DNA of 64,000 nt, from positions 644,291-708,290 of the forward strand of contig CBFHKH010000001.1 of the NCBI GenBank assembly GCA_965656375.1, written 5' to 3'. The notes under the pieces are model-generated. The model was not told the DNA's origin, did no database searches, and saw only the letters and a program-made list of their open reading frames with translations. Made by a program: the position numbers and the translations under genes. Position 1 is the stretch's first letter; every line of letters starts with the position of its first letter. Positions 3,508-21,869 of this stretch are shown one piece after another. Source of the DNA: Minisyncoccia bacterium. Its GTDB lineage: Bacteria > Patescibacteriota > Minisyncoccia > Phycocordibacterales > UBA9973.

Positions 3508-3676
3508 AGATTTTTACTCCATACGCGGTAACATCCACGGACTCACTACGCATAAACGTGCTCGGTTTTTGCTTTTCTCACGCCGTCGCGTTGCGAAGAG
3601 AGTCGCTCGTAGGTATTTTCGCTCCTGGAATAATAAATGTTACTATAATAACGTGATTCACAAAGCAAAAAAATCA

Positions 3677-4456
3677 ATGGGGCAAAACTTTTTGAAATCA
3701 GAGCCCGCTTTGCGAATGATGCTTGAGGCAGGCAGTGTTACAGGTACAGATGTAATTCTCGAGATCGGCCCTGGCAAAGGAGTACTTACTGAAAGATTAC
3801 TTGCAAACGCAAAAAAAGTTATTGCTATAGAAAAAGATCGCGACCTGATAGAAATTCTCAAAGAGAAGTTTAAAGAAGAGATCGCACAAAAAAGATTAGA
3901 ACTTATCCTAGGGGATTGTCTTCTATTTGATCCAAATGATCATAATATTAAATCAGGAACATATAAACTCATCGCAAATATTCCTTACAATATTACTGGA
4001 GCAATTATAAAAAAATTCCTCGCTGAAGTTGTACAACCAAATACTATGGTGCTTTTAGTACAAAAAGAAGTTGCAGAGCGTATCGTTGCTCGAGATAATA
4101 AAGAAAGCATTCTATCACTAAGTGTAAAAGCATACGGAGATCCAAAGTACATGATGAAGGTTGGAAAACGTTTCTTTTCTCCGAGTCCAAAAGTTGATTC
4201 TGCTATTGTAGCGATCACTAACATTACAAAAGATCGATTTAGATCAAAAAAAGAGGAAGAATACTTTTTCACAATTGTAAAAGCAGGGTTTGCTCATAAG
4301 CGTAAGGTTTTACGCAAGAATTTAGAAGAAATAGCACCCAAGAGTAGGATAGACATAATGTTTGAAGCACTTACTCTAGGAGTAACTACCCGGGCTGAAG
4401 ATATTCCTATTACTCTCTGGTTTAAAATTCAGAGCTATCTATCCACACATATATAG
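3677..4456 (+). CDS. rsmA: 16S rRNA (adenine1518/1519-N6)-dimethyltransferase RsmA/KsgA
   Basis: MGQNFLKS...ILEIGPGKGVLTERL SAM-binding motif. Start moved to the internal ATG at 3677; the track ORF begins at 3482, overlapping the uvrD end. Confidence 0.85.
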   Translation: MGQNFLKSEPALRMMLEAGSVTGTDVILEIGPGKGVLTERLLANAKKVIAIEKDRDLIEILKEKFKEEIAQKRLELILGDCLLFDPNDHNIKSGTYKLIANIPYNITGAIIKKFLAEVVQPNTMVLLVQKEVAERIVARDNKESILSLSVKAYGDPKYMMKVGKRFFSPSPKVDSAIVAITNITKDRFRSKKEEEYFFTIVKAGFAHKRKVLRKNLEEIAPKSRIDIMFEALTLGVTTRAEDIPITLWFKIQSYLSTHI

Positions 4457-4490: not shown

Positions 4491-4892
4491 ATGAAGAAGG
4501 AATTGTTAAAAATTGCAGTCGTACTACCACTTCTTGCGATATTGCTCGTCGCATTCAATTACGTACATGCTGCTTCATCTCAAAATCCCTTCGGTGGAGT
4601 GATAATAAACACGAAAGCAACAGAGATACAGCAAAAGGAAGCTCAAAATTTCAAGTGTATCGTACCTGGACAAACGATAACCATCCGCCCAAAGGGTAGA
4701 AATTCAAGAACAACCTTCTTCATCCCCGCTGCAGTAAAACAAAGAGGTGGGTCATCACTCCGAGCTAATCAGAACATACTTGGATATTTCAGCCAATCAA
4801 TGACAACAATATCGTGCATATATCAGGGCTATCCTACACGAACAGAAACTGTAACTCTTCCCTCTATAACTCTATTTGGAACCAACAAGTAA
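4491..4892 (+). CDS. secreted hypothetical protein (signal peptide)
   Basis: N-terminal MKKELLKIAVVLPLLAILLVAFNYVHA signal-like segment. First gene of the T4SS-like cluster. Confidence 0.5.
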   Translation: MKKELLKIAVVLPLLAILLVAFNYVHAASSQNPFGGVIINTKATEIQQKEAQNFKCIVPGQTITIRPKGRNSRTTFFIPAAVKQRGGSSLRANQNILGYFSQSMTTISCIYQGYPTRTETVTLPSITLFGTNK

Positions 4893-4893
4893 C

Positions 4894-5766
4894 ATGAATA
4901 AATATCTTCCAAGCAGACAATTCGTAATTCGCGTGATTGTGATTGTAGTCCTTCTTATCCTTGCGATCAGCATATATAAGATCACGATATTTATAAAAGG
5001 AAAGCTTAGCCAAAAAAAACAAACAGAGCTTATTGTAAAAGCAGATGTTATTCAGAAAGACAGCAATGACAATGGGATACCTGATTGGGAAGAATCACTC
5101 TGGGGACTTGATCCAAAGAAAAACGGACAATCAAATAAAGAATATATCCTTACAAAGCGCGAAGCACTTGCTCGAGAAAATAATATTCCTTTAGAAAGCA
5201 ACGAATCCTTATCTGAAAACGAGACATTAGCTCGAGAATTCTTTTCTATTATCATGTCCCTTCAAGAGTCTGGTAATCTTGATGAAACATCTATGCAATC
5301 AATAGGAGATACGATAGGACAAAAGATTGTAGCAACACCAATTCCAGACATTTATACTGAAAATATGCTTTCAACCATAAAAGCAAATTCTGCAACCACG
5401 AGTAAATACTCTGATTCACTACTCTCCTTAATAAATTCTTATAAAAGTACCGATTTAGGAAAAGAACTCACATTTATAAGCGTCGGCCTTACCAATAGCG
5501 ACCCACAGGCACTCGTAGAAGCTGGGAATGTTGCTACCCTCTATCGAACATTTGGTAAAAATCTCTTAAAAATACAAGTTCCGAATACATTTATTGCAGC
5601 TCATTTATCACTTGCAAATGATTATGAAAAAGTGGCTCAGTCTATAGAAGGTATGTCTAAATTACTGATCGATCCGATAATAGGTATGAAAGCTATTGTA
5701 AACTATAAGAAATACACAGATGGAATCGTAACTGATTTTGATACACTTTCAAAGAATTTGGAATAG
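4894..5766 (+). CDS. membrane-anchored hypothetical protein
   Basis: ATG at 4894 lies immediately after the stop of the preceding gene. N-terminal TM (VIRVIVIVVLLILAISIY), then a soluble domain. Confidence 0.5.
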   Translation: MNKYLPSRQFVIRVIVIVVLLILAISIYKITIFIKGKLSQKKQTELIVKADVIQKDSNDNGIPDWEESLWGLDPKKNGQSNKEYILTKREALARENNIPLESNESLSENETLAREFFSIIMSLQESGNLDETSMQSIGDTIGQKIVATPIPDIYTENMLSTIKANSATTSKYSDSLLSLINSYKSTDLGKELTFISVGLTNSDPQALVEAGNVATLYRTFGKNLLKIQVPNTFIAAHLSLANDYEKVAQSIEGMSKLLIDPIIGMKAIVNYKKYTDGIVTDFDTLSKNLE

Positions 5767-5791
5767 ATGATATACTAAAGGCATTACTCTA

Positions 5792-8260
5792 ATGAATAAA
5801 CCACTGATTCAAAAAATAACATCCTTCCTAATTATAGGCCTATTTTTGTTGCAGCTACTTTCTCCATCTTCCTTATATGCTGCACCCCTTAATTATGATA
5901 ATCCGAATAAAAGTGGAAATAACCCTTACCAACTTTCTCTCAAGGGTGTAGTTAGTAGCGGTTTACTTACATCTGTTGTCGGTTGTACTGGGATAGTTGA
6001 TAAAGTTGCCAAAGTTACAACAGATTTTGCTCAAAAACTAGCCGTAAAAAAAGCAAAGTCAAAAGCAACTAGTGCCGAAGCAAAAAGCCATCAGTCTGAT
6101 TCGGTCCCAGTCGTAGACTCTACAAGTATCAAAACCGAAGAACAAGGACACAACGACACACAAACAGATATCGAAAAAGATTCGTATACAGAAAATTGTT
6201 TAAAAGGTATTGCTATAACACTTGCCAAGAATCAGCTAACTGCAATGACAAAATACACCATGAACTGGATCACAACTGGATTCAATGGTGACCCGCTCTA
6301 CGTACGTGATGTAAATTCATATATGGACAGCCTTACGACAGATATCCTTGAGAAAGAAAATGAACTTTTCAAAGATCCAGATAACGCAGATGAATATCCA
6401 TGGGCGCGGAGTTATACACAAGGACAAGTAAATATATATAAATCTGCAAAAGACGCATACGGATCATTACGACAAGATTTAACCAATTACCTCACTCCTG
6501 GTTCGACTCCAGAGAGCTTCGCAAATGACTTTTCTCAAGGAGGATGGAATGGGTGGCTTGCGCTTACCCAGCGCCCTGAGAATAATCCACTTGGTTTTAA
6601 TATAGTAGCGACTGAAAATCTTAATAAACAAAAAAACAACGCAGTAGAAACAGCAAGAGCAGAAATACAAAGAGGCAATGGAGTTCTTGATCAGAAAAAA
6701 TGCGTTGAATATGAAAAGATAACCTTCTCAGGTGCTCGTACCTGTAATGGAGGAATTCCAGAAGATGAACTTATGCCTGGTACGACATGTATTCCTGACA
6801 AACCAAATAAAACTCCTACAAACAACGCGCCACGATGTATCAAATACGAAACTGTTACTCCAGGATCAGTTATCAAATCAAAGATCGATACATATATCAA
6901 CTCACCTGAGCGTCAGATAGAACTCGCTAATACAATTAATAGTGCACTTAATGCTCTTTTTGCTGCACTTATCACGAAATTTGAAGACCAAGGTCTATCA
7001 AGTCTTGGCTCAAAGGTCAACAATTTCTCATCACCAACAATAAGTGGCGGCTTTGGATCTAATCGTCTTTTTGATTCACTCGGAAATCCAATTTCATCGA
7101 CAAATATTTTTAATAATACAAGTAATGATGCAAGTGTTAATCAATCATTTGATATTACAAGAGATCTTGGTAATAAGTACGTCGAGGCACTCAATAGTGG
7201 TTCATGGGATGCTGATACGAATACTCCTGAGATCATTCCTGGAAAGGGTATAAAGCATCAGTATTATACTGTCTCAAAAGCAGGTGATACAAAACTTTTC
7301 CCTGGAACTCATCACTTTACTGTCGGAGAGAAAGTGTACTTTGACGGTACACTATGGAAAGTAGGAGTGCCAAAATACATTATAGGTACAAAAGGAGTCT
7401 TTCAAATACAAAAGGATTACGGAGCGTCAATCGCAAAAGCTGAAACTATTCTTCCACAAGTCATTCCTGCATTGGGTGAACTCGACTATTGTATTCCAGG
7501 TCCAAACCAAAATTGGATGATGACATCTACTGATGCGAAGGATGCATATAGTGATTATTTGAGTGGAGTAACTACCGAATATATACGTGATGTGTATGAT
7601 GAGTGTCCATTTATCGGATGTGACGGTATTCAATTTATCGGGGGATTACTCAATGGGGGACTTGATCACTCATACAATGTTATCTCTCTTCCTGATGAAA
7701 CTGAATACAAGGATTTATTCGATGATGCACGAAATCTCTGGGACAAGATCGTACAAGAAGAATTCTTCTGGATAGCTCGCAATGATATACATATGCGTTA
7801 CACATTCTCTTCAGACCATTGGGCGGTTGACCCGGCATACGTAGACAGACAAGTCGCAAAATGGACTGAGCTTTCGAAAAATGCATGGGCTGAATACATT
7901 ACAAAGGCAAAGGCTCTCTATGGTATCGGCAGCCCAATGCAAAGTGAATTTACATTTAATGGAGATTACAACACCTCCTACCTACCGATGGCTCAGGCAG
8001 GGCTTGATCTTGCAAAAGATATAGTAACAAATGCAAGCGACATCAAAGAAGCTATTGAAACGAATGAAACGAATATTGCTCAATCAAGTGCTACTGTATA
8101 TAAACTCACAACTATCAAAGACAAAGTCAACAAAATCATCCTTGCTGCACAAAAGCGTCGCAAAGATAAGAGAGATGCAGATGGATTAGGAGCTATACCC
8201 CAGATCTGTCTTGATAATGAACAAGTAACCTACATCGAAAATGGTGTACTTAAACGATAA
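5792..8260 (+). CDS. large secreted hypothetical protein (822 aa), T4SS-cluster associated
   Basis: Signal peptide MNKPLIQKITSFLIIGLFLLQLLSPSSLYA; long ORF. Has the size and position of Gram-positive T4SS surface/adhesin proteins, but no motif was recognised. Confidence 0.5.
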   Translation: MNKPLIQKITSFLIIGLFLLQLLSPSSLYAAPLNYDNPNKSGNNPYQLSLKGVVSSGLLTSVVGCTGIVDKVAKVTTDFAQKLAVKKAKSKATSAEAKSHQSDSVPVVDSTSIKTEEQGHNDTQTDIEKDSYTENCLKGIAITLAKNQLTAMTKYTMNWITTGFNGDPLYVRDVNSYMDSLTTDILEKENELFKDPDNADEYPWARSYTQGQVNIYKSAKDAYGSLRQDLTNYLTPGSTPESFANDFSQGGWNGWLALTQRPENNPLGFNIVATENLNKQKNNAVETARAEIQRGNGVLDQKKCVEYEKITFSGARTCNGGIPEDELMPGTTCIPDKPNKTPTNNAPRCIKYETVTPGSVIKSKIDTYINSPERQIELANTINSALNALFAALITKFEDQGLSSLGSKVNNFSSPTISGGFGSNRLFDSLGNPISSTNIFNNTSNDASVNQSFDITRDLGNKYVEALNSGSWDADTNTPEIIPGKGIKHQYYTVSKAGDTKLFPGTHHFTVGEKVYFDGTLWKVGVPKYIIGTKGVFQIQKDYGASIAKAETILPQVIPALGELDYCIPGPNQNWMMTSTDAKDAYSDYLSGVTTEYIRDVYDECPFIGCDGIQFIGGLLNGGLDHSYNVISLPDETEYKDLFDDARNLWDKIVQEEFFWIARNDIHMRYTFSSDHWAVDPAYVDRQVAKWTELSKNAWAEYITKAKALYGIGSPMQSEFTFNGDYNTSYLPMAQAGLDLAKDIVTNASDIKEAIETNETNIAQSSATVYKLTTIKDKVNKIILAAQKRRKDKRDADGLGAIPQICLDNEQVTYIENGVLKR

Positions 8261-8264
8261 TTAT

Positions 8265-9197
8265 ATGGAACATCATCCTAGAAAAACAAAAGCATTCATC
8301 ATAACTTTCATTGCGATACTTATTCTTTTGATCGTTGGATATTTAGTATTCAGAAACACTGGTACTATCTTTGGGATAAAGAGTAGTGGGAATACGAATA
8401 AGATATTTTCTCCACTTCTTGGAACATCTAAACAAAACACAGTGGATGTGAAACCCGTAAATACAGGTGGAGATACTCCAATAAACAATACTTCGACAAC
8501 GTTACCAACAACAAACCTCTCTGTCACAGATCCGAGTGGCATAGCTCCAGGCTCAGTTTCTGCTCCGATAGGTCAAGGTGGAACAACTAATCCAAATGGC
8601 GCGCCGGTTATCACACCACCATTTAACCCGCTCCCAACACCTACAACTGACTGTGTTGATGCAAGCGGTAATCTGATTCAATGTAACAATACTCCTACGA
8701 TCACAAATCCAGAGTGTTCAGACTCTATAGATAATGATAAGGATGGGTTAAGTGACGCAGCTGATTCAAGCTGTCATACGGATTATAATGCTTCGAATAT
8801 GCTTTCGTACGACAAGAATATCAACGATGAATCTCGTTTGCAGCCAATAACTGGAGATACAGAAATATCAATGTGTCCGGATGATCCACTTGTATTTACT
8901 GAAGAAGAAAAAGTTGAACTTGCGACACTACTCCGACAATATTACTTGCTTGCACCAACACTCAAGATTGAAGACGACGTTACTCTTGTAGACTATGACA
9001 ACCAAACAAATGAAGAACTGGTCAAGCAGGCAACTTCGCTTACGAATGATTGTAATGCCCAGAAGGCATCTCCTGGATACACGGGGCCACAGGCAATCAA
9101 AGACAATCCATATTATCAAAATCCAGTGGCAAACAGCGGTGCAAAAGAGTACATACCAGGATACAGCTTGTATGAATTGATGTTCAATATCTGGTAA
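8265..9197 (+). CDS. membrane-anchored Thr/Pro/Cys-rich hypothetical protein
   Basis: N-terminal TM AFIITFIAILILLIVGYLVF, then a T/P-rich linker and a Cys-containing domain. Start taken at the ATG at 8265 after the upstream stop. Confidence 0.45.
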   Translation: MEHHPRKTKAFIITFIAILILLIVGYLVFRNTGTIFGIKSSGNTNKIFSPLLGTSKQNTVDVKPVNTGGDTPINNTSTTLPTTNLSVTDPSGIAPGSVSAPIGQGGTTNPNGAPVITPPFNPLPTPTTDCVDASGNLIQCNNTPTITNPECSDSIDNDKDGLSDAADSSCHTDYNASNMLSYDKNINDESRLQPITGDTEISMCPDDPLVFTEEEKVELATLLRQYYLLAPTLKIEDDVTLVDYDNQTNEELVKQATSLTNDCNAQKASPGYTGPQAIKDNPYYQNPVANSGAKEYIPGYSLYELMFNIW

Positions 9198-9267
9198 GTA
9201 GCTATTTCCTCAGGTACTGGAGAGGAAAAGTACTGGGATTTACTAGGAAAATTGGTATAATACTTGT

Positions 9268-11982
9268 GTGAGCAAAAAAACTCTCCCCCTCATTCTCATA
9301 CTTCTCATCATCGCGCAAATGTTTGTGCCTTTTACTGTAGGACGTGACAAAAACAACATTCCCACAATAAAGAAATCTGTAACAGAAGCAGCAATAATGC
9401 AGGTAGCAGTTGACTATACGAGCACGAGTACCGCTATAGATCTTACATTTAGAATTCATCGAGAAACGTCAGATAATCATGGTGTTTTTTACATGATTAC
9501 AAATAATCCGGGAACGACACTAAATCCTAATAAGGATTTTTCATGTACGATATCAACAGGACAAATCTCTACAGTTATTCCCTGCGACTTGAAAGGTGTC
9601 GTTGAAAATGAAAATGCAGATACAGAGATAACATCAGCAAGCCAAGTGTTTGTTCCTGCAAGTGGATCAACAGCGATGGTTACTGATCGAATAAGTAACA
9701 ATCAATTAACCGCTGCTCCAGAAACAACAGGCAGTGATGGAAAAACATACAAGGATGTAACTATAAAGAAAGTTATAAGCCCACTTACTGCAAATACTAC
9801 GTACTACTTGAATGTCTGGGCGTATAATGGAAATCTGGTACCTGAAGGAATTTCATTCTTCTTAGATAAAAAAATAACAACGTCAGTTGCAGGTCAAACT
9901 AATCAGACACCTACTACAGTCGGAACTGTCGAAACAACAGGCGATGGCATGCCAAGTTGTGTATTTGCGCACCCAATAGATGGAACATTTGTAGGATGTA
10001 TAGCGCAGCTTATATATTACGTAGTATTCGTTCCTACTTCATATATATTTGGACTTGCAGGAATGTTTTTCGATACAACGTTTAATTATTCTATACAAGA
10101 CAAATCGTACAACAATTCATTCGTGGTGGAAGGGTGGGGGATCATACGTGATTTCTGCAACATTTTCTTCATATTCGTACTTCTCTATGTAGCATTCTCT
10201 ACAATACTCGGTCTTGGTCATAGTAAACCAAAGGAGATGATTGTAAATGTAGTAATTATAGGGCTTCTGATCAACTTCAGTCTTTTTACCGCTCAAGTCA
10301 TTATAGATACTTCGAACATTTTAGCTCGAGTCTTTTATAATTCCGACGCAGTCAAAGTCACTAAAGATGGAGTGGATCAAGCAGGTGCAAATGGCGTTAT
10401 ACCGATATCAGCCTCGATAGTGAGTAAGGTTGATCCGCAACAACTTATCATAAATTCGAGTAGAGTTTCTGTCTTAAACAAAGCAACCGGAGAAGAAGCA
10501 AGTGCAGGAAATAAAAATTCCACACTTGGAGTAGGAGGATTTATATTGATAACACTCCTTGCAAGTGCGGTTAACGTTGTAGGATTCATTGTATTTCTCA
10601 TGGTTGGAATTATGCTTGTATCTCGAGTTATCGGACTTTGGTTTGCAATGATCTTTGCTCCGCTTGCCTTCTTCTCATATACCGTACCTCAGATGCAAGG
10701 TATGTCGATGGTGGGTTGGAAACATTGGTGGCCGGAAACAATCAAGCTCGCCTTTCTTGCGCCTATTTTCATATTCTTTCTCTACCTCATCCTCAGATTC
10801 ATAGAGTTAGGATTCGGATTAGGAGATGCGGCAAAAGAATCAGGTATCAACTTTGTCCTTCTTACTATGATTCCGTTTATATTTATAATGGTTCTTCTTT
10901 GGAAAGCAAAAGATGTAGCAAAAGATCTGTCCGGCAAGCTTGGGCAAGGAATAACCGGTGGTATATCTGCAGTGGGAGGTATGGCTCTTGGCGGAGCGGC
11001 ACTTGGAGCTGCATTTGCAGGAAGAAAGCTTATTGGAAGTACCGTAGCTCGAGCATCACGAGGAGATACTCTTTCTCAAAGATATGAAGATCCTACAAAG
11101 AGAGCAAAGATGAATGTACTTCAAAAGAGCTTTGGATACATGGGTTCAAAAGTGGGACTCGGAAAAGTATTTGGTAATACATATGACGCAAAAACTCGAA
11201 CAGTCGATAGTGGTATCGGTGGAGTTTTAAATAAGAAACAAAGAAAAGTGGGTGAAATTGACCATGCTCGACACGAGATGGATGCAATTAAAGAAAAAGC
11301 TGGTCTCAAAGGAGTTGATGATGATAGGATTTCTGGCGTAAATGAACAGAAGATGAAGGATACATATGTCAAAGAGAAGAAATCTATGGTTGAATCGGAA
11401 CTTAGAAAGAATGGTGGAGTGGTTGGCGGACAGAAGGTTGAAAGTGAAAATGAATTCAAGGCAAATAATCGAAATCAACTGGTCACAAAAGCGATGAACG
11501 ATCCAAACAACCTAGAGGCTAATGGTACTCTAAAGGATGAGGCAAAGAAACAGATTGAGAATACTCTCAATGCAAATTATGAAATCTATATTAAACCACA
11601 AGTTGAAGCAAAGGCTGCTCAGGATTATGGTCACCTTCGAGATGAATCGAAAACAAAAGTTAATCCACTCGATAGAACAATCGCTCGGTCAAATACTGCT
11701 TCATATGATGCTCGCAATATCTCACAGATGAAAGCGGATAAACGTGAAGGTATATTTACCAGAATGAGTGCAGGATTGATAGCTGGAATCGCTATGGGGG
11801 TACGTACAGGGCTCAAGAATAGTGGAATCAATCATGGTTCTGGCCAAAGTGACTTCCTTAAGGATATTGGACATACTATTACAGAAGCAATGAAGAGCGC
11901 AAAATTTAATGTGAAAGTAGAAGAAAGTCATGGACATGACGCGGGAGGTGATCATGGGCACGGCGGTGGAGGTCATCACTAA
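9268..11982 (+). CDS. VirB6/TrbL-like polytopic membrane protein with long charged C-terminal domain and His/Gly-rich tail
   Basis: GTG start. N-terminal signal plus ~230-aa extracytoplasmic domain, a central block of at least six hydrophobic helices (aa ~240-560), then a charged K/E-rich domain ending HGHDAGGDHGHGGGGHH. The architecture resembles PrgH/TcpH-type VirB6 proteins. Confidence 0.5.
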   Translation: MSKKTLPLILILLIIAQMFVPFTVGRDKNNIPTIKKSVTEAAIMQVAVDYTSTSTAIDLTFRIHRETSDNHGVFYMITNNPGTTLNPNKDFSCTISTGQISTVIPCDLKGVVENENADTEITSASQVFVPASGSTAMVTDRISNNQLTAAPETTGSDGKTYKDVTIKKVISPLTANTTYYLNVWAYNGNLVPEGISFFLDKKITTSVAGQTNQTPTTVGTVETTGDGMPSCVFAHPIDGTFVGCIAQLIYYVVFVPTSYIFGLAGMFFDTTFNYSIQDKSYNNSFVVEGWGIIRDFCNIFFIFVLLYVAFSTILGLGHSKPKEMIVNVVIIGLLINFSLFTAQVIIDTSNILARVFYNSDAVKVTKDGVDQAGANGVIPISASIVSKVDPQQLIINSSRVSVLNKATGEEASAGNKNSTLGVGGFILITLLASAVNVVGFIVFLMVGIMLVSRVIGLWFAMIFAPLAFFSYTVPQMQGMSMVGWKHWWPETIKLAFLAPIFIFFLYLILRFIELGFGLGDAAKESGINFVLLTMIPFIFIMVLLWKAKDVAKDLSGKLGQGITGGISAVGGMALGGAALGAAFAGRKLIGSTVARASRGDTLSQRYEDPTKRAKMNVLQKSFGYMGSKVGLGKVFGNTYDAKTRTVDSGIGGVLNKKQRKVGEIDHARHEMDAIKEKAGLKGVDDDRISGVNEQKMKDTYVKEKKSMVESELRKNGGVVGGQKVESENEFKANNRNQLVTKAMNDPNNLEANGTLKDEAKKQIENTLNANYEIYIKPQVEAKAAQDYGHLRDESKTKVNPLDRTIARSNTASYDARNISQMKADKREGIFTRMSAGLIAGIAMGVRTGLKNSGINHGSGQSDFLKDIGHTITEAMKSAKFNVKVEESHGHDAGGDHGHGGGGHH

Positions 11983-11992
11983 ATAAGATATT

Positions 11993-13111
11993 ATGGATCA
12001 AACACAATTACAACAACAAATAGCTCTCTATTACTCAAAACTCTCGCCAGAAATGCAGGCGTCATTTTCGAGCATGCAGTGGATGGAATCACTCAGAGAA
12101 ATTAGTAGGATATACAAACTGACTGAAAATCAGATAGTTACACTCGGAACCGAAACAACCCTTGTTTTACTTGGGATAATATCCACAGAAGAATATGAAG
12201 CTACATTGAAAGATGAGATAAAAATAGACGATGCCGGAATGAAATCAATGCTTGCCGAGATTGAATCAAAAATACTCGGTGTAAATCGTTCCAGACTTAG
12301 AGAAGCATTTGAAAAGAATGTAGACGAATTAGGACAAGAAAAGTACGGTGGGGTACAGAAACTCGATGAACGATTCCTCAAGCTTCCGCAAGAAGTACAG
12401 CAAGCAATTAGAGAATCGAACTATCAACCTGTACTCTACAAAATTGCAGAAAAACATACACTTTCCATCAATCATATGGCAGCGCTAGAAGAAGCAACCA
12501 CAAAAGTCATGCTTGGCATGATACATCCCGACAAATATGAACAAGAATTACAATCTACTATCGGCATTCCAAAAGAAGAGATTAGAGAAATTGTCAGTGA
12601 AGTAGATGAAGGAGTTTTAAAAAATATTAAAGAAATACTCAAGTCACATTGGGGAAAACAAGAAATAGCAACTACTGCGGATGATGTTCCGATTCCACCG
12701 TATAAAACATCTTCACTAGAGACTTTTTCAAAGGAATCTGACGCGAAAATATACGAGGCGTCTGGAGTTGAAATAGTTAAAGATAGTAAGCCTATACTTT
12801 CAAAACCCGAAGAAAAGAGCGTAACAGAAAGTGAAAGCGGGGTTTTAAATAGTTCGGGAATCAATATCGTACGAGACATTCCCATTGCTCCTTCTGAACA
12901 CATACTTGCAAACAAAGAAACAGAGAAAAAACTCCTTGAAGGACTCGAGCATCCTGCCGATGTAGCAACAAGTATTATTGGGGATAAATTAAGCGGTGCG
13001 ACTAAAAGTAAAGACACGGTTACTGATTATTCACTACCAAAGCTTGGAAAGGATGTAGCGGTGCCTCTGCCCACAAAACCTCACGATCCATACCACGAAC
13101 CAATTGAATAG
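11993..13111 (+). CDS. hypothetical soluble protein (372 aa) inside T4SS-like cluster
   Basis: ORF with no TM segments or recognisable motifs. Confidence 0.4.
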   Translation: MDQTQLQQQIALYYSKLSPEMQASFSSMQWMESLREISRIYKLTENQIVTLGTETTLVLLGIISTEEYEATLKDEIKIDDAGMKSMLAEIESKILGVNRSRLREAFEKNVDELGQEKYGGVQKLDERFLKLPQEVQQAIRESNYQPVLYKIAEKHTLSINHMAALEEATTKVMLGMIHPDKYEQELQSTIGIPKEEIREIVSEVDEGVLKNIKEILKSHWGKQEIATTADDVPIPPYKTSSLETFSKESDAKIYEASGVEIVKDSKPILSKPEEKSVTESESGVLNSSGINIVRDIPIAPSEHILANKETEKKLLEGLEHPADVATSIIGDKLSGATKSKDTVTDYSLPKLGKDVAVPLPTKPHDPYHEPIE

Positions 13112-13130
13112 TTTGTGATACAATATATAC

Positions 13131-13547
13131 ATGCAGTTTAAGGTCCCACAATTCATTGATATTGAGGATAAGCTTTTCGGACCTTTCACGTTCCGTCAAT
13201 TCGTCTATCTAGTCGGTGGTGCAGGAATGATATTCGTTGTGTACAAGCTTTTGCCGCTCTATATTGGTATTTTTCTCATCATACCAATCGCAGGCCTTTC
13301 TGCGCTTTTGACATTTTACAAGATCAACAACAAGCCTTTTATTTATTATCTCCAGGCAGCAACAAATTACGCCATTTCAAGTAAACTCTATGTATGGAAA
13401 CAACGTCTTGCGAAACATACAGACAATATAAATACTGATGATATTGCTCTTTCTCAAAAAGTTTCTACCTTGCCAGTTATGACAGAGAGTAAACTCAAAG
13501 ATCTTTCATGGAGTCTTGATGTACAGGCAAAAGACGAAAATGAATAG
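13131..13547 (+). CDS. PrgI family / VirB3-like small membrane protein
   Basis: MQFKVPQFIDIEDKLFGPFTFRQFVYLVGGAGMIFV... matches the PrgI-family pattern (vP, K, lt.RQ, G) plus two TM helices. It sits directly upstream of the VirB4 gene, as in Gram-positive T4SS operons. Confidence 0.6.
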   Translation: MQFKVPQFIDIEDKLFGPFTFRQFVYLVGGAGMIFVVYKLLPLYIGIFLIIPIAGLSALLTFYKINNKPFIYYLQAATNYAISSKLYVWKQRLAKHTDNINTDDIALSQKVSTLPVMTESKLKDLSWSLDVQAKDENE

Positions 13548-13573
13548 GTAGTAAGTTGTGATATAATTACATT

Positions 13574-14227
13574 ATGGCAATCAACGCGAGGAGCGCACAA
13601 GAATTCGTACCAATCAAAGAAGTTCGCAATGGCGTCATCGTTCTCAAAGACGGAGGTCTTCGTGCAGTTCTTATTGCCTCATCTATCAATCTTTCTCTCA
13701 AATCAAGCGACGAGCAGACTGCTATTATAAATCAATTCCAGTCATTCTTAAATGGTCTTGATTTTCCAACACAAATCGTTATGCAGTCCCGCAGGCTCGA
13801 TATTCGTCCGTATCTTTTAACACTCGAAGAGAGACTCAAACAACAAAATGAGAAGCTTTTGAAGATTCAGACAAAGGAGTATATAGATTTCATCCGCTCA
13901 TTCACAGATGAGGTTAACATCATGACGAAAACATTCTTTGTCATTGTTCCCTATAGTTCGGCAGTACTTAAATCAAGCGATGGGTTGCTCGAAAAGATTG
14001 TCGGTGGAAATGCCGCTAAAAAGCAGATTGAAGATACGAAGAAAGCTATTGACCTCGCATCATTCGAAGAAAAACGAAGTCAGCTCGATCAGCGCGTTGG
14101 GGTTATTATCGGAGGTCTCGGCGGCATTGGTATTCGCTCAAGTCAGCTCAAGACCGAAGAGATCGTAGAGCTTTTTTATAAGACATTCAATCCAGGAGAT
14201 ATTAGTCAGGGAATTAAATTACAATAA
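13574..14227 (+). CDS. VirB4/PrgJ-like ATPase, N-terminal fragment (217 aa)
   Basis: EFVPIKEVRNGVIVLKDGGLRAVLIASSINLSLKSSDEQTAIINQFQSFLNGLDFPTQIVMQSRRLDIRPYL is the typical N-terminus of Gram-positive VirB4 (CagE_TrbE_VirB family). It ends with TAA 8 nt before the next ORF, in a different frame. Confidence 0.6.
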   Translation: MAINARSAQEFVPIKEVRNGVIVLKDGGLRAVLIASSINLSLKSSDEQTAIINQFQSFLNGLDFPTQIVMQSRRLDIRPYLLTLEERLKQQNEKLLKIQTKEYIDFIRSFTDEVNIMTKTFFVIVPYSSAVLKSSDGLLEKIVGGNAAKKQIEDTKKAIDLASFEEKRSQLDQRVGVIIGGLGGIGIRSSQLKTEEIVELFYKTFNPGDISQGIKLQ

Positions 14228-14235
14228 GAATCAGT

Positions 14236-16074
14236 ATGTCGATATTTTCATCACTATTTGGAGGAGGTAAAAACAAGACAGGACCAAAAAGCTCTGTCAT
14301 GCCGGTACTTCCCGCTGAGATCTATAAAGCTGCAACACTCGAGCTTCAAGATATCATCGCGCCATCAGCATTACAAATAACTCCAAAATCTTTAAACTTG
14401 GGCGATAAAATTGCGCGAACATTTTTCGTTATTTCCTACCCCCGATATCTCTCGGATAACTGGTTCTCGCCGATCATCAACCTTGATAAAGTTTTTGATG
14501 TATCTATATTTGTTCATCCGATCGATACCGCAGAAGTTCTCCATATGTTCCAGAAAAAAGTTGCCGAGGTGCAGAGTCAAATCTCTATTCGCGAATCAAA
14601 AGGTCTTGTTCGAGATCCAATGCTTGATACTGCGTATCAAGATTTAGAAGGACTTCGAGATAATCTTATGCAAGCTCAAGAGAAAATGTTTGATGTTGGA
14701 CTCTATATCACCGTATATGCCGATACAGAGAACGATCTGTTCAAAATTGAGAGTGAGATAAAATCCCTTTTAGAATCAAAGCTTATTTACCTAAAACCAG
14801 CCTTATTTCAGCAAGACGAAGCATTTAAAAGTGTTATTCCACTTGGTACAGATATACTCGGTATTCATCAGAAGCTCAATACAGAACCACTGTCTTCGCT
14901 CTTTCCGTTCGTATCATTTGACCTGACATCAGATAAAGGAATACTCTACGGGGTTAATCGTCACAACTCGAGCTTGATAATATTTGATCGATTCTCACTC
15001 CCGAACTACAATTCGATAACATTTGCCACATCCGGTGCAGGAAAATCATACGCGACAAAGCTCGAAATAATCCGCACACTCATGTTTGACACTGAGGTCA
15101 TCGTTATCGACCCTGAGCGTGAATATGAATACCTCTCTGAAGCAGTTGGCGGGCGATATTTCAATATATCTCTTTCGTCAGATCACCATATCAATCCGTT
15201 TGATTTGCCTATACCGTCATCTGATGAAACGGGAGCCGATGTTCTTCGCGCTAACACCATAAACCTGGTTGGACTATTTCGCATTATGCTTGGAGGTCTC
15301 ACTCCAGAAGAGGATTCTATAATCGATAGTGCTATCACTGAAACATACGCACTTAAAGACATTACGGCAGAATCTAATTTTGCAAACATTGAGCCTCCAC
15401 TTCTCTCTGATTTTGAAATGGTACTCGCTGGTATGGAGGGGAGTGGATCACTCATCCAACGTCTTGCAAAATTCACTCACGGATCATGGGCATCATTTCT
15501 AAACCAGGCTTCAAACGTAGATATCAATCGTAAATTCGTCGTGTTCTCTGTTCGCGACATGGAAGACGACCTAAAACCTGTTGCTATGTATATAGTCACA
15601 CACTATATATGGAATGCTGTTCGAAAGAATATAAAGAAACGATTACTTGTCGTCGATGAGGCCTGGTGGATGATGAAATCCGACGATACAGCTTCATTCC
15701 TTTATTCTATTGCTAAGCGCGGGCGTAAGTACTATCTCGGCCTTGCAACCATAACCCAAGACGTAGGAGACTTTATGAAGAGTCCGTATGGTGTGCCAAT
15801 TGTCACAAACTCTTCTATACAATTACTACTCAAACAATCTCCATCAACAGTTGATGTGCTCCAAAAAACTTTTAATCTGACAGATGAGGAAAAATACCTG
15901 CTTCTCGAAGCAAATGTCGGAGAGGGTATATTCTTTGCCGGCCTCAAGCACGTCGCGGTAAAGACTATTGCTTCATATACAGAAGATCAGATCATTACAT
16001 CTGATCCATCGCAAATACTCGCTATCAAGAAAGCAAAGGATGAATTGGCGGCATCTTCTGGGACAGGACGCTAA
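14236..16074 (+). CDS. VirB4/PrgJ-like ATPase, C-terminal portion incl. Walker A/B (612 aa)
   Basis: GDKIARTFFVISYPRYL region; Walker A TSGAGKSYATKLEII; Walker B LLVVDEAWWMM; LATITQDVGDF. Together with the 217-aa fragment this makes ~829 aa, the usual VirB4 length. Confidence 0.75.
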   Translation: MSIFSSLFGGGKNKTGPKSSVMPVLPAEIYKAATLELQDIIAPSALQITPKSLNLGDKIARTFFVISYPRYLSDNWFSPIINLDKVFDVSIFVHPIDTAEVLHMFQKKVAEVQSQISIRESKGLVRDPMLDTAYQDLEGLRDNLMQAQEKMFDVGLYITVYADTENDLFKIESEIKSLLESKLIYLKPALFQQDEAFKSVIPLGTDILGIHQKLNTEPLSSLFPFVSFDLTSDKGILYGVNRHNSSLIIFDRFSLPNYNSITFATSGAGKSYATKLEIIRTLMFDTEVIVIDPEREYEYLSEAVGGRYFNISLSSDHHINPFDLPIPSSDETGADVLRANTINLVGLFRIMLGGLTPEEDSIIDSAITETYALKDITAESNFANIEPPLLSDFEMVLAGMEGSGSLIQRLAKFTHGSWASFLNQASNVDINRKFVVFSVRDMEDDLKPVAMYIVTHYIWNAVRKNIKKRLLVVDEAWWMMKSDDTASFLYSIAKRGRKYYLGLATITQDVGDFMKSPYGVPIVTNSSIQLLLKQSPSTVDVLQKTFNLTDEEKYLLLEANVGEGIFFAGLKHVAVKTIASYTEDQIITSDPSQILAIKKAKDELAASSGTGR

Positions 16075-16133
16075 GAAGGTATTTCCGTGATTACCTACTT
16101 TCTAGTTATAGACAGATACTATATAATAGAGAT

Positions 16134-17129
16134 GTGATTACACAACGAGCAAAAATAGCACTAAGTGTACTTTTCTTGATAAGTATCCTTTACGTAGGTA
16201 AGGAAACTTGGGCAGCAAACGAAATTAATCCAGGTGAAGGAGATATATCAGTCACTACTATTCCAGAGAATCCGGAACCATATCAGGATGTCACAATACA
16301 GCTTTCAAGCTATGCGACAGATCTTAATAGAGCAATGATACAGTGGCAAAGCGGGGCGCGTGTCGTACTCTCAGGATATGGAAAGACAAGTTATTCATTC
16401 AAAACACAGGGTCCAAACACTGCAACTATACTTACTGTCATTATCGCAATACCAGGTACTATCGACAATATCACGAAACAGATATTCATTAATCCGTCAG
16501 AAGTTGAACTTATTTGGGAGGGAGTTGATTCATATACTCCGCCATTTTACAGAGGTAAATCATTTCCGACAGCTGAAAGCCGTATAAAGGTAGTAGCTAT
16601 TCCAAATACCACTACAATCAAACAAGGGAAGGGTTCAGTTTCGTATATATGGAAGTATGGTGATCGCACAGCACAAAGCGCGTCTGGCTACAATAAAGAT
16701 TCATTTGTTTATCAAAATAGTGTACTTAATGATATAGATAAGATCACAGTCACAGCAGAATCTGTGGATGGAGGATACACTGCAACAAAAAGTATACAAA
16801 TACCGATAAGAGAACCAAAACTCCTTTTCTATAAAAAGTCTCCAACTGAAGGGGTATTGTATAATCAAGCACTCGAGTCTGGATCATTTATTGAGGAAGA
16901 GGAAGCAACGTTTGTTGCAGTACCATATTTCCTTGCACTTTCTGGTAATGAGAATAATTTCAATTACACATGGAAGATAAATGGAAAAGAGATCGAAACT
17001 CCATCGAAAAAAACAGAACTCACTATTCGTCCAGCTGCTCGTGGGGGATATGCCACTATTGATGTACTTTTTGAGAACCTAGATACAATTTATCAGAGTG
17101 TGAAAGGTAGTCTTAAAATAACCCTCTAA
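16134..17129 (+). CDS. secreted hypothetical protein
   Basis: GTG start with a TATATAAT box just upstream. Signal peptide ALSVLFLISILYVGKETWA. Confidence 0.45.
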   Translation: MITQRAKIALSVLFLISILYVGKETWAANEINPGEGDISVTTIPENPEPYQDVTIQLSSYATDLNRAMIQWQSGARVVLSGYGKTSYSFKTQGPNTATILTVIIAIPGTIDNITKQIFINPSEVELIWEGVDSYTPPFYRGKSFPTAESRIKVVAIPNTTTIKQGKGSVSYIWKYGDRTAQSASGYNKDSFVYQNSVLNDIDKITVTAESVDGGYTATKSIQIPIREPKLLFYKKSPTEGVLYNQALESGSFIEEEEATFVAVPYFLALSGNENNFNYTWKINGKEIETPSKKTELTIRPAARGGYATIDVLFENLDTIYQSVKGSLKITL

Positions 17130-17130
17130 T

Positions 17131-18579
17131 ATGAAAAGATTTTCATCATTGCTAGTCCTCACACTTCTTGCAATAAACACTTTTGTGCCATTTGGTATAT
17201 CACTATCTTCTAATTTTTTACCAGAGATAGTGAAAAATACAGTTTCTGCTGATACCTGCACGATACTCTCAGCAGAATGGAGTCCGGCTGGTGAACAGAG
17301 CAAAAGTACTTTCTATAGAGACGGAAAGACGGCAGCAAATATCGTAGTGGGGACAAAGGGTTGTGTCGACCAACCAGGAATAACGCTTACTGTTTTTGAA
17401 TCGGATAGCTGTCCTCAGAATTGTGATGATGCATTGATTGATTCGAATCTATTGCGAAGACAGATAAAGGTTCCGAGTGATAATTTCACTATACGCATTA
17501 GATTAGGAGAAGAAGAATGCGAAGCTGGATTATCCGGAAGCATCGGCTATGACTGTGATTTATTCTTCTATATAAGACAAGGTGATACCACGCTCTATAA
17601 TTCATCTGGGAAAACCAATGGTGACATCTACTATGAATGTGACGGGCTTTGTTTTGACAATGCTGAATTATTGAAAATCTATGCCCAGGGATCAGACAGC
17701 AACCCAACCACTGTAGATATCAATACGAGCGCAATAAACGAAGATGTATATACTCTTCTTGCTCCTATCGGTAACATAAACTGTGTAAGTGATACTGGGA
17801 TGGATAAGGATGGTAATCAGAACTGCATTGTGGGCAATGGAATCGGATACTATCTGAATGCAATTTTCCTCCTTGCTATCGGTCTTTGTGGAGCGCTCGC
17901 AGTTATTATGATCATCATAAGTGGTATTCAGTACATGGGTGATGAATCAGTATTCGGTAAAACTGAAGCAAAGAGCAAGATATTTGCTGCAATACTTGGT
18001 CTTTTGATCGCACTTGGTTCATATGCATTGCTTCGAACTATTAATCCTGATCTCACTGGTTCAGACGGAGTATCGATAAGCCAAGTTGAGGCTGAAATAG
18101 ATGATCAACCGATACTCTCTGATGAAAATACAGTTGCTCCAATAGGAACAAATATTGCTAAGTGTCCGGAAGGAGTGGAACCAACACAAACTGCAACTGT
18201 AAAATTCATTACTTGTAAATCGATTTCAGTAAAGTTTAAACAAATGATTTCTGATGCATTAGCAGCAGGAATGAAAATAACTGGGGGAGGATTCAGAACC
18301 CGTGCTGAGCAAGTTGCTCTGTATCAAAAGAATTGTGGAGGTGGTACAAGAAAATGTAATCCACCTACAGCAAAACCAGGAAGTTCTATGCACGAAAGTG
18401 GGCTCGCATTTGATTTGAAATGCGATGGAAATTTAATCAATTTTGACGGAAATCAAAGAAAATTCCCAATTGTTACATCTACAAAAAAATGTTTTGATTG
18501 GTTAGCCGCAAATGCCTATAAATACGGACTACAAAATTTTAAAAGAGAAAATTGGCACTGGTCTACAAACGGTCACTAA
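17131..18579 (+). CDS. secreted Cys-rich domain + VirB2/TrbC-like TM hairpin + C-terminal peptidase M15 (VanY/CwlK-type) peptidoglycan hydrolase
   Basis: Signal peptide. Two hydrophobic helices separated by a short charged loop (LNAIFLLAIGLCGALAVIMIIISGIQYMGDESVFGKTEAKSKIFAAILGLLIALGSYALL). C-terminal SSMHESGLAFDL (SxHxxGxAxD) and ENWHW (ExxH) zinc-peptidase motifs. Confidence 0.6.
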   Translation: MKRFSSLLVLTLLAINTFVPFGISLSSNFLPEIVKNTVSADTCTILSAEWSPAGEQSKSTFYRDGKTAANIVVGTKGCVDQPGITLTVFESDSCPQNCDDALIDSNLLRRQIKVPSDNFTIRIRLGEEECEAGLSGSIGYDCDLFFYIRQGDTTLYNSSGKTNGDIYYECDGLCFDNAELLKIYAQGSDSNPTTVDINTSAINEDVYTLLAPIGNINCVSDTGMDKDGNQNCIVGNGIGYYLNAIFLLAIGLCGALAVIMIIISGIQYMGDESVFGKTEAKSKIFAAILGLLIALGSYALLRTINPDLTGSDGVSISQVEAEIDDQPILSDENTVAPIGTNIAKCPEGVEPTQTATVKFITCKSISVKFKQMISDALAAGMKITGGGFRTRAEQVALYQKNCGGGTRKCNPPTAKPGSSMHESGLAFDLKCDGNLINFDGNQRKFPIVTSTKKCFDWLAANAYKYGLQNFKRENWHWSTNGH

Positions 18580-18589
18580 TAAATAATAT

Positions 18590-19927
18590 ATGCCTAGAAA
18601 AACAAAAATTATCTTCATAATCGTGTTTGCAGTCATCGGGATGGGAACGTTGAGTGCATATTTCTACATTAATCGTGCAAAAACAACCGGATCAACTGAT
18701 GGTGCTTCATCTGGCTACAAACCGTTCTTTGGTAGTAGTAATACACCCGATACAGAAACAACATCACAAGATCAAACAGGAAACACCGATACCAATGTAA
18801 ATACAGAATCAGCCGAAACCATAAATGCGACACCATCAGGTTCTTCTCGATTCAGTCAGATTGCTAATTTCGCAGTTGCAGGAGCGGTATTTTTCGAAGA
18901 TACCCGACCAATACCCGAAGATGAAGTAGCCCTACCGGGAGGTGAAGAGCCAGCTAAAGAACCTTCTCCAGTGAAAGCTAAAACAAAGACAGCTCCTGTG
19001 AAACCACAAGCACCTAAATTTGAAATAGTACCGAGTCTTCGGTATGTAGAGCGCGCTACAGGGCATATACATCAGATGTATCTGGACACAAAAGTAACTG
19101 GACAAGTCTCTAATGGAACAATACCAACAGTATATGAAGCTCTCTTTGATGGTAAAGCAAACTCGCTTTTGTATCGCTATATCGGAGATGATGGACGGAG
19201 TATTACAAGTTTCTTAGCAACACTCGGAAGTGCAAATGGTGAATTTTTGCCGGCAGATATCCTCGATGTAAGCGTTTCTCCCGATAAAAGCAAATTCTTT
19301 TATTTGACAAAGACTGCTCAAGGGGTAGTCGGCACAACTCGGTCATTTAGAGATACGAAAAAAACCCAAATATTTAGCTCTTCTCTTACAGAACTTCTTT
19401 CAGAGTGGGTAACCGACCAGAAGGTATTTTTAACGACAAAAGCTGATTCCTCGGTAAACGGAAGTGTATTTAGTCTAAATACTGGGACTGGAGTCCTTAC
19501 AAAGATCCTAGGAGGGGTAAAGGGGCTTACAACCCTTGCAAACAACGATGGGTCATTCGTCCTTTACAGTGTCTCAACAAATAGTGGTCCGAGGTTAGGT
19601 ATTTTTGATGTTAAAAATCATACCTCAAAAGACCTCAATATAAATGGGCTTCCAGAAAAATGTATTTGGAAGGATACTTTTATTTATTGCGCTATTCCTA
19701 ACAATGCTACAGGTACCGGATATCCAGAACTATGGTACCGAGGACAAGTATCATTTACTGATCATTTTGTTAAGATAAATACAACAACATATGAAAGCAC
19801 TACGTTGGCGGATTCAGCATACGAGATACCTATCGATGGTACTCATCTTTTCTTGGATGATACAGATACGACTCTCTTCTTCATAAACAAGAAAGACTCC
19901 ACTCTTTGGAGTCTTAACCTAAAGTAA
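18590..19927 (+). CDS. membrane-anchored hypothetical protein, probable beta-propeller-like extracytoplasmic domain
   Basis: N-terminal TM IIFIIVFAVIGMGTLSAYFYI. Last gene of the cluster, convergent with jag. Confidence 0.4.
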   Translation: MPRKTKIIFIIVFAVIGMGTLSAYFYINRAKTTGSTDGASSGYKPFFGSSNTPDTETTSQDQTGNTDTNVNTESAETINATPSGSSRFSQIANFAVAGAVFFEDTRPIPEDEVALPGGEEPAKEPSPVKAKTKTAPVKPQAPKFEIVPSLRYVERATGHIHQMYLDTKVTGQVSNGTIPTVYEALFDGKANSLLYRYIGDDGRSITSFLATLGSANGEFLPADILDVSVSPDKSKFFYLTKTAQGVVGTTRSFRDTKKTQIFSSSLTELLSEWVTDQKVFLTTKADSSVNGSVFSLNTGTGVLTKILGGVKGLTTLANNDGSFVLYSVSTNSGPRLGIFDVKNHTSKDLNINGLPEKCIWKDTFIYCAIPNNATGTGYPELWYRGQVSFTDHFVKINTTTYESTTLADSAYEIPIDGTHLFLDDTDTTLFFINKKDSTLWSLNLK

Positions 19928-19945: not shown

Positions 19946-20404
19946 TTATTCAGCGATATATTTTATAACTACCCGTCGATTTGGACCGGATCCTTCAGAT
20001 TCAGTTTTAATATCTTTTGCTCCTTCAAGGAACATATGAACAATACGACGCTCATATGCAGGCATTGGGTCTATTTCAATGCTTGATTTAAAGTATCGTG
20101 CTCGCTCAGCCATCATATGTGCAATGGTTTTTAGATTATCAAAACGCTTTTTCTGGTATTCGTTCACATCAATAAAAAGCTTTGCTGATTGCTCCTCGCC
20201 AACTGTTTTCTCAACCATCTTTCTAACAAGATGATTGAGTGAGCGAAGTGTCTCGCCATCGCGACCGATCATAAATCGTGAGTCTGGAGTACTAATCATG
20301 CACCAGAGCATACCGTTTTCATCCGAGAATTCACATGTTGAAATAGTACACCCGGTTTGTGTAAATATTTCTTCTATGATCTTTTTAACAATATCTTTAT
20401 CCAT
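19946..20404 (-). CDS. jag: Jag/KhpB RNA-binding protein (KH + R3H)
   Basis: R3H-like PMPAYERRIVHMFL...GSGPNRRVVIKY, located directly downstream of yidC. Confidence 0.75.
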   Translation of the reverse strand: MDKDIVKKIIEEIFTQTGCTISTCEFSDENGMLWCMISTPDSRFMIGRDGETLRSLNHLVRKMVEKTVGEEQSAKLFIDVNEYQKKRFDNLKTIAHMMAERARYFKSSIEIDPMPAYERRIVHMFLEGAKDIKTESEGSGPNRRVVIKYIAE

Positions 20405-21397: not shown

Positions 21398-21401
21398 AGA
21401 G

Positions 21402-21728: not shown

Positions 21729-21869
21729 CTATTTTTTTATAGAGACTTTTGCCCGACCCTTTTGACGTCTACGAGCAGTAACCTTTCTACCTCCTGGAGT
21801 TTTCGCTCGCACGAGGAATCCGTGAGATTTTGCTCTTTTACGTGTGTTTGGCTGATATGTTTGAGACAT
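21729..21869 (-). CDS. rpmH: 50S ribosomal protein L34
   Basis: Hand-translated minus-strand ORF below the 60-aa track cutoff: [46 protein letters not shown] (46 aa), the classic L34 sequence. Confidence 0.85.

Follow-up and report, generated by a model that had tools for sequence, protein, structure and literature searches.

A probable core type IV secretion system beside dnaA in a Patescibacteria genome

A cluster of 12 genes (g1 to g12) was analysed in a stretch of 64,000 nucleotides from a Minisyncoccia bacterium (GenBank assembly GCA_965656375.1, contig CBFHKH010000001.1, positions 644,291 to 708,290), hereafter the window. Located at positions 4491-19927 of the window, the cluster is very probably a core chromosomal type IV secretion system (T4SS) of a Patescibacteria genome (class Paceibacteria, Nomurabacteria-like). 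Judged by its sequence, the system belongs to a Patescibacteria-specific lineage descended from monoderm conjugation machinery (MPF-FATA). The machine is not used for conjugation, and our best guess is that it serves as a conduit for macromolecule exchange with a host cell. Taken together, a core Patescibacteria T4SS with a non-conjugative role as host conduit is highly likely to be the best explanation of the locus. The original prediction, which was made from the DNA letters and a list of open reading frames (ORFs), read the genes as a minimised monoderm T4SS, and this reading stands: the cluster encodes a PrgI/VirB3 protein, VirB4 and a VirB6-like protein, together with a pilin-like hairpin that is joined to a cell-wall hydrolase.

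Because the observation and its interpretation coincide with published work, the cluster is a rediscovery of a system that was described in 2023-2025, is already known and occurs in nearly all ultrasmall Patescibacteria (CPR). The original prediction had called such a machine poorly characterised. This stands for its function; it does not stand for the system itself, the absence of relaxases and the position near dnaA, ksgA, rnpA and rpmH, all of which a survey has documented in some 2,400 Patescibacteria genomes (Quinonero-Coronel et al. 2025, Microb Genom, PMC12102498). Added here are explicit evidence for a split VirB4, fixed TolB-like and Ig-like members, a modular pilin-hairpin protein and a VirB4 that is more conserved than DnaA. 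In the main text of PMC12102498 we saw no mention of a pilin-like hairpin in a 482-amino acid (aa) M15 fusion, of fixed TolB-like or Ig-like members or of VirB4 exceeding DnaA in conservation.

Patescibacteria represent a large share of bacterial diversity and live attached to other microbes. Since the T4SS is among their few universally retained envelope machines and is essential in the one tested species, it is a leading candidate for the conduit between parasite and host. The cluster analysed here offers a clean example from the Paceibacteria in which all 12 genes are inventoried; its details help the design of experiments and leave the established picture unchanged.

Motor and membrane platform

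The predicted VirB3 and VirB4 assignments were borne out by profile searches. Protein g7 matched PF12666 (E = 1.2e-9; 39.1 bits, cut-off 27) and TcpE (E = 1.7e-4), and carries a transmembrane (TM) hairpin at residues 25-51. Protein g9 matched NF045971 ('VirB4-like conjugal transfer ATPase, CD1110 family') with 370.6 bits (cut-off 325; positions 183-732 of 752) as well as PF19044 (E = 6.6e-25). Among PDB sequences its best match was a Firmicute VirB4, that of Thermoanaerobacter (4AG5, E = 2e-36), with R388 TrwK at E = 5e-4. Walker A (SGAGKSY) and Walker B (VVDEAW) motifs, read from the sequence, are intact.

Absent from the original prediction was the splitting of VirB4 into a TrsD-like piece of 217 aa (g8) and a piece of 612 aa (g9), which is indicated by both proteins covering successive positions of the same VirB4 models: 2-136 and 183-732 of NF045971, and 102-233 and 292-881 of NF045975, for g8 and g9, respectively. 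Combined, the two measure 829 aa; TrwK has 823 aa. Protein g8 matched the TrsD/TraD family (E = 1.6e-8); it gave no match in Pfam, and its orthologue profile gave chance matches only against PDB sequences. The alternative of g8 as a separate, unrelated gene was rejected, as g8 matches the N-terminal part of VirB4 models that g9 continues.

The polytopic protein g5 is likely to be VirB6. An N-terminal FN3-like beta-sandwich ectodomain (residues ~44-221) is followed by a TM helical bundle (~241-560) and a long cytoplasmic helical region, ending in a Gly/His-rich cytoplasmic tail (...HGHGGGGHH, encoded at 11930-11982). The terminal GGGGHH was kept across 70 homologues and may be a metal-binding or docking motif. 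A database protein 100% identical to g5 measures 887 aa, so that the true start of g5 probably lies 17 codons downstream of the GTG at 9268. Searches of g5 against Pfam, NCBIfam and PDB sequences, as single sequence or profile, yielded no match, the PDB profile matches being chance only. Of the proposed VirB6/TrbL assignment, the Pfam TrbL family was thus not recovered for g5, nor was any TrbL/VirB6 family found in a Pfam scan of 33 orthologues; in its favour, the closest orthologue carries a weak precomputed TrbL_3 match. Orthologues with a precomputed PF19590 match gave nothing when rescanned with Pfam, and no literature on PF19590 was found. Foldseek comparison of a g5 model with the PDB returned nothing at E <= 0.001; a weaker match to TrwI was used as supporting evidence only.

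Envelope components downstream of virB4

The C-terminal domain of g11 matched VanY above cut-off (E = 3.6e-11; 43.4 bits, cut-off 25) and LdcB (E = 6.4e-7), and HESGLAFD and WHW are discernible in its sequence as predicted Zn-ligand motifs. Its TM hairpin matched the T4SS_pilin family PF18895 below threshold (E = 0.003) and the Mbov_0395 pilin-like family at E = 0.036. PF18895 was found at the same hairpin in five out of five orthologues (E = 3e-5 to 4e-4), sometimes together with TrbC/VirB2. Over g11 and these orthologues, scores were 18-24 bits (cut-off 26.6) with near-full model coverage, at the same hairpin in 6/6. Hence, of the predicted fusion of a VirB2-like hairpin to a peptidoglycan hydrolase, the hydrolase was confirmed, and the pilin part stands as a sub-threshold, recurrent match.

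In 62 relatives with a gene at the g11 position, a signal peptide and TM hairpin were nearly always present, with protein lengths ranging from 183 to 774 aa. The M15 motif occurred in only about 10 of these 62; one orthologue carries CBM_10 and two have no recognisable enzyme domain. The pilin-like hairpin is the constant element at this position, with N- and C-terminal ectodomains swapped between lineages and the M15 fusion as one variant. A VirB1-type hydrolase (SLT and/or CHAP, as in PrgK, TrsG and CD419) was not found here, its place being taken by the M15 VanY/LdcB-like domain, which is an analogue and not a homologue.

The two remaining members of this part of the cluster are envelope components as well. 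Protein g10, conserved in position in 76 of the 80 relatives described below, is probably Ig-like, based on weak matches to aBig_2, Ig_3 and BiPBP_C; its profile had no match among PDB sequences. For g12, found in 67 of the 80, the orthologue profile matched TolB in the PDB (7MX5, E = 4e-4; 5/5 matches being TolB), and orthologues showed weak PD40 matches, with PG_binding_1 in the linker of three (8e-9 to 3e-7).

Such surface parts raise the possibility of an organelle for attachment only, in which VirB4 builds a pilin fibre that holds the host together with the surface proteins and no substrate passes. This would suit the pilin-like hairpin protein, the Ig-like, FN3-like and propeller surface domains, the fast evolution of the extracellular components, as expected of host-recognition parts, and the requirement of VirB4 for pilus biogenesis in other T4SSs (literature). 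We nevertheless consider it improbable: type IV pili for adhesion are already encoded in the window (PilB, PilM/N) and present in the phylum (Xie 2022, as cited in a later paper), g11 is not a free small pilin, and a VirB6-like channel with a VirB4 that exceeds DnaA in conservation seems excessive for an adhesin.

Conservation, synteny and absence of mobility genes

A search for VirB4 homologues gave at least 8,000 matches. The best 120 cluster representatives were inspected and were 89-96% identical; all those with a source name come from Patescibacteria, Paceibacterota or Nomurabacteria. For comparison, 80 loci (L001-L080) with 75-94% VirB4 identity were collected from a scan of GTDB species genomes and searched with all window proteins using tblastn. 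Throughout these loci the gene order was (UvrD-KsgA)-g2-g3-g5-g6-PrgI-g8-VirB4-g10-g11-g12-(Jag-YidC-RnpA)-(DnaA-DnaN). PrgI (g7) was present in 76 of the 80, directly upstream of g8-g9 every time. Among the 57 loci with at least 8 kb of sequence downstream of virB4, dnaA was located downstream in 50, at a median distance of 5.8 kb; the origin-proximal position, for which synteny in related genomes had been proposed as a check, is therefore shared.

Median identity to the window was 80% for VirB4, 65% for DnaA, 60% for g8 and for DnaN, 51% for PrgI and 35% for g5, and extracellular cluster proteins ranged from 27 to 42%. In each of 50 paired comparisons, VirB4 showed higher conservation than DnaA. 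These values point to a vertically inherited cluster composed of a strongly constrained motor and fast-evolving surface parts. Fixed order, VirB4 conservation and fast surface parts do not form the pattern of a mobile element, in agreement with the original prediction of a chromosomal, core, origin-adjacent locus rather than a conjugative one.

As also predicted, no relaxase, VirD4/TcpA-type coupling protein (T4CP) or integrase was found, and no transposase either. The survey covered the window's ORFs of 140 aa or longer, the majority by a scan against Pfam and the remainder by reading translations. This survey extends 4 kb upstream and 44 kb downstream of the cluster. The other ORFs encode housekeeping proteins (PBP1A, TyrRS, RuvABC, PolA, Fpg and others), type IV pilus components, surface proteins and a two-component system, and the P-loop proteins seen were UvrD, VirB4, DnaA, RuvB, PilB and TsaE only. 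A search for att-like direct repeats flanking the cluster gave short chance matches only, and the window's three tRNA genes are all at a distance of over 24 kb, none of them near an integrase.

These results bear on the reading of the locus as an integrative conjugative element (ICE), or its decaying remnant, with relaxase, T4CP and integrase outside the window. VirB4, TrsD and PrgI do have homologues among the proteins encoded by ICEs and plasmids in Firmicutes and Mollicutes, and 64 kb of an 840-kb genome were in view. The fixed position between ksgA and jag-yidC-rnpA-rpmH-dnaA in relatives, the conservation of VirB4, the missing mobility genes, the lack of a GC anomaly and the intactness of 12/12 ORFs all speak against it, as does the scarcity of relaxases in Patescibacteria, where 103 genomes out of 3,035 have one (PMC12102498). 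The ICE reading was rejected as practically excluded, on the grounds of origin position, conservation and missing mobility genes.

Gene inventory and neighbourhood

The 12 plus-strand ORFs are tightly packed: no gap exceeds 71 nt, some ORFs overlap, and all are intact (Table 1). Gene calls made independently for the closest sequenced relative likewise place 12 genes, of near-identical sizes, between ksgA and jag; the 14 co-directional genes counted originally were corrected to 12. The cluster adjoins the classical origin block at 2 kb from dnaA, and its GC content (0.36-0.41) is like that of the rest of the window. A promoter and terminator scan of the cluster gave sites fewer than, or no more than, those in shuffled sequence and was therefore uninformative on operon structure.

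Table 1. Genes of the cluster and of its immediate surroundings (window positions)
Feature	Position	Strand	Description	Basis
DUF5663 protein gene		+	Upstream context	Pfam
uvrD/pcrA	1588-3507	+	Upstream context	Pfam
ksgA	3482-4456	+	Upstream context	Pfam
g1	4491-4892	+	133 aa; signal peptide, small secreted domain	Hydrophobic N-terminus 4-22
g2	4876-5766	+	296 aa; bitopic, TM ~16-34	
g3	5792-8260	+	822 aa; signal peptide, large secreted or surface protein	
g4	8241-9197	+	318 aa; bitopic, Pro/Thr-rich linker, Cys-rich acidic motif	
g5	9268-11982	+	904 aa; extended VirB6-like polytopic channel protein (likely)	
g6	11993-13111	+	372 aa; helical N-terminal half, low-complexity C-terminal half	
g7	13131-13547	+	138 aa; PrgI/VirB3-family membrane protein	PF12666
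g8	13574-14227	+	217 aa; TrsD/TraC-like, detached N-terminal segment of VirB4	NF045971, TrsD/TraD models
g9	14236-16074	+	612 aa; VirB4 ATPase, rest of N-terminal domain and RecA-like motor domain	NF045971, PF19044
g10	16134-17129	+	331 aa; signal peptide, beta-rich extracellular protein	
g11	17131-18579	+	482 aa; signal peptide, Cys-rich ectodomain, TM hairpin ~241-301, C-terminal M15 (VanY/LdcB-like) peptidoglycan peptidase	
g12	18590-19927	+	445 aa; N-terminal TM anchor, low-complexity linker, TolB-like beta-propeller	
jag/khpB	19946-20404	-	Origin block, outside the machine	Pfam
yidC	20408-21166	-	Origin block	Pfam
yidD	21191-21424	-		Translation; annotation of closest relative
rnpA	21402-21722	-	Origin block	Pfam
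rpmH	21729-21875	-		Translation; annotation of closest relative
dnaA	21991-23352	+	Origin block	Pfam
dnaN	23559-24656	+	Origin block	Pfam

Of the less conserved genes, g1 was detectable by tblastn in only 2 of the 80 relatives and g4 in 10; both are variable, g1 being an accessory gene with no Pfam family. Protein g2 contains a thrombospondin-type-3-like Ca-binding motif (DSNDNGIPDWEE) followed by mostly helical-looking sequence, with D62, D70 and W71 invariant. TSP3_bac matched 10 members of a mixed orthologue scan, and its attribution to g2 rests on the motif in the sequence; the g2 profile had no match in the PDB. Protein g3 evolves fast (median identity 28%). Both g4 and g12 start with PRKTK and a TM segment, and their genes share a 28-nt DNA repeat (8277-8304 and 18593-18620, 82% identity), which suggests a common N-terminal anchor module. 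Protein g6 has no TM segment and is hence predicted to be cytoplasmic; its orthologues showed no consistent Pfam family. Kinship of g6 with the nearby DUF5663 protein was rejected, the sequences being unrelated.

Three DnaA-box-like 9-mers (one mismatch each) are grouped at 23353-23430 in the 206-bp dnaA-dnaN spacer, and one further such 9-mer lies at 21924-21932 in the rpmH-dnaA spacer. The group is suggestive of, and compatible with, an oriC located in these spacers. Window-wide, 26 boxes were observed against 18.9 expected, which is not significant, and the GC skew was without a sharp switch.

Proposed mechanism and direction of transport

The following steps were derived from established T4SS biology. 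PrgI (g7) would anchor VirB4 at the membrane, and VirB4 hexamers docked on PrgI and the VirB6-type channel would power translocation and the assembly of a channel, possibly with a short pilin-based tube, across the epibiont wall, while the M15 peptidase (g11) would open the peptidoglycan locally. The pilin-like and surface proteins would make up the extracellular part, with the variable surface proteins contacting the host cell. Direction and substrate are speculative.

Uptake of host macromolecules (nucleic acids) is the direction that we tentatively prefer, short of calling it probable. One ground is that, to our knowledge, the two DNA-importing T4SSs described, Helicobacter pylori ComB and archaeal Ced, are likewise VirB4-only systems without T4CP or relaxase. 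Another is that the essential function in the tested relative, Southlakia epibionticum, needs no T4CP homologue. In addition, the phylum is unable to synthesise nucleotides, lipids and amino acids, so that it depends on uptake and must obtain nucleotides in this way. A preprint on a cultured Minisyncoccota strain reports that host RNA is taken up and that tubes, which may be T4SS pili, are present where parasite and host meet; by which route the RNA enters is not settled there (bioRxiv 10.64898/2026.06.21.733656). A more specific version, which we regard as rather unlikely as a whole, is a VirB4-only, T4CP-independent importer of host RNA or DNA, in which the protein at the g11 position would be a wall-piercing, host-specific tip whose ectodomains (M15 here, CBM-type in one relative, unassigned in others) are swapped to match the host envelope.

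In the opposite direction, the T4SS might deliver proteins or toxins of the epibiont to the surface or the interior of the host bacterium, so as to manipulate this bacterium or make it permeable. For the Saccharibacterial system, Wang et al. (2023, Cell, PMC10633639) suggest that it 'may instead export proteins', exporters that function without a T4CP are known from the literature (Bordetella Ptl and Brucella VirB), and many secreted proteins are encoded in the cluster. The latter carry Sec-type signal peptides, so that the T4SS is not needed for them, which counts against export. Moreover, no effector-like or chaperone-like gene was recognised in the cluster, no T4CP is present in the locus to recruit cytoplasmic substrates, and the missing biosynthesis of the phylum calls for uptake. 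Export is accordingly seen as possible, on balance unlikely.

Several points weigh against the proposed non-conjugative host conduit, whichever its direction. Essentiality has been tested in a Saccharibacterium only. Six of the 12 proteins (g1, g2, g3, g4, g6 and g10) have no assignable function, and what backs the assignments of VirB6 and the pilin is either below threshold or at the level of fold. The large domains on both sides of the g11 hairpin argue against a canonical VirB2 pilus polymer. No VirB8-like component (a bitopic protein of NTF2 fold, as PrgL/TraM) was recognised, the g2, g10 and g12 profiles having no VirB8-like match in the PDB. Finally, the absence of T4CP and relaxase holds for 64 kb of an 840-kb genome, and VirD4-like genes are reported far from virB4 in most Patescibacteria genomes.

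Other genes in the window

Type IV pilus genes are scattered over the window at 31512-33266 (-), 55947-57566 (+) and 57568-58125 (+), encoding a PilB/T2SSE ATPase (E = 6e-117), PilM with a possibly PilN-like C-terminal extension and a possible PilO-like bitopic protein. The type IV pilus is the other envelope machine reported essential in Saccharibacteria. Near pilB, two genes encode secreted proteins that look like adhesin candidates: one of 318 aa with a Pro/Arg/Gln-rich tail (33414-34370, +) and one of 662 aa, rich in Ser/Thr/Asn, with apparent internal repeats, DUF11 and a C-terminal TM anchor (34496-36484, +). A signal-peptide protein of 180 aa (30915-31457, +) gave a weak full-length OMP_b-brl match (E = 0.005) and ends in ...FHFTF like many outer-membrane proteins. 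It is odd for a supposedly monoderm lineage and may be a horizontal acquisition or a soluble beta-protein.

Tandem paralogues of 631 and 579 aa (51025-52920 and 52928-54667, +; 30% identity, E = 5e-75) are rich in CxxC pairs and both end in YCEKCYQQEVI, with weak zinc-finger-type Pfam matches only. Two overlapping genes at 59858-61419 (+) are flanked by those for a response regulator and a histidine kinase; one encodes a ThiF-family adenylyltransferase, and the other, which is small, has a weak FeeM-like (N-acyl amino acid synthase) match.

Comparison with known systems

The cluster was compared with the MPF-FATA conjugative T4SSs of pCF10 (prgH-I-J-K-L), Clostridioides difficile CTn2 (CD1110 VirB4) and pGO1/pSK41 (trsC-D-E). 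Likenesses include a VirB4 passing the CD1110-family cut-off, the PrgI and TrsD families and the absence of outer-membrane core components. The order VirB6-like, VirB3, VirB4, hydrolase is one that we take to be collinear with prgH-I-J-K of pCF10. Unlike in those systems, a relaxase, a T4CP and a PrgB-type adhesin were not found here, an M15 peptidase stands in place of the SLT/CHAP enzyme, and a pilin-like element is present that is absent from Gram-positive conjugation systems. The locus also differs in being chromosomal, vertically inherited and apparently core.

With H. pylori ComB and archaeal Ced (CedA/CedB), the cluster shares the drive by a VirB4-type ATPase and the lack of a relaxase or coupling protein in the locus. 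Homologues of ComB VirB7-10 and of CedA were not detected in the cluster. The weak match of g9 to CedB (E = 2e-6; cut-off 700 bits) reflects general VirB4 homology, and the resemblance to these importers is functional speculation only.

A closer counterpart is the T4SS of S. epibionticum ML1, genes SEML1_0006-0019 of which are essential for epibiotic growth as determined by transposon sequencing; the locus has no recognisable relaxase or coupling protein, and in the supplement a PrgI gene is followed directly by a hypothetical gene and then by a VirB4 gene of 1,839 bp, as in the window (Wang et al. 2023, PMC10633639). Neither comEC nor a distant T4CP homologue is essential in this species (PMC10633639; PMC12857230), and the dispensability of comEC means that essentiality is not explained by natural transformation (PMC12857230). 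Both loci are origin-proximal (in S. epibionticum by locus tags 0006-0019) and have PrgI, TrsD-like and VirB4 genes adjacent and in the same relative order, a 612-aa VirB4, a large VirB6-like protein and wall hydrolases beside VirB4. S. epibionticum has an array of six VirB2-like pilins, each small and free, and encodes an NTF2-like (VirB8-like) protein, whereas the window has a single pilin-like hairpin inside a multidomain protein and no recognised VirB8-like gene.

The closest known system is the Patescibacteria-clade T4SS. In the 3,035 Patescibacteria genomes searched by Quinonero-Coronel et al. (2025), VirB4 was found in 2,417, nearly all in one clade nested in MPF-FATA, and TrsD, PrgI/VirB3, VirB6 and VirB2-like pilins were found near virB4. 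In Paceibacteria and Microgenomatia, virB4 was located close to dnaA, dnaN, rnpA, ksgA and rpmH, and the authors concluded that the T4SS was co-opted for a non-conjugative role, possibly import (PMC12102498). The present cluster has the same components, with VirB6 as a likely assignment and the VirB2-like pilin as a sub-threshold match, and the same neighbours, has no relaxase or T4CP nearby and belongs to the same phylum, with no essential difference from the published system.

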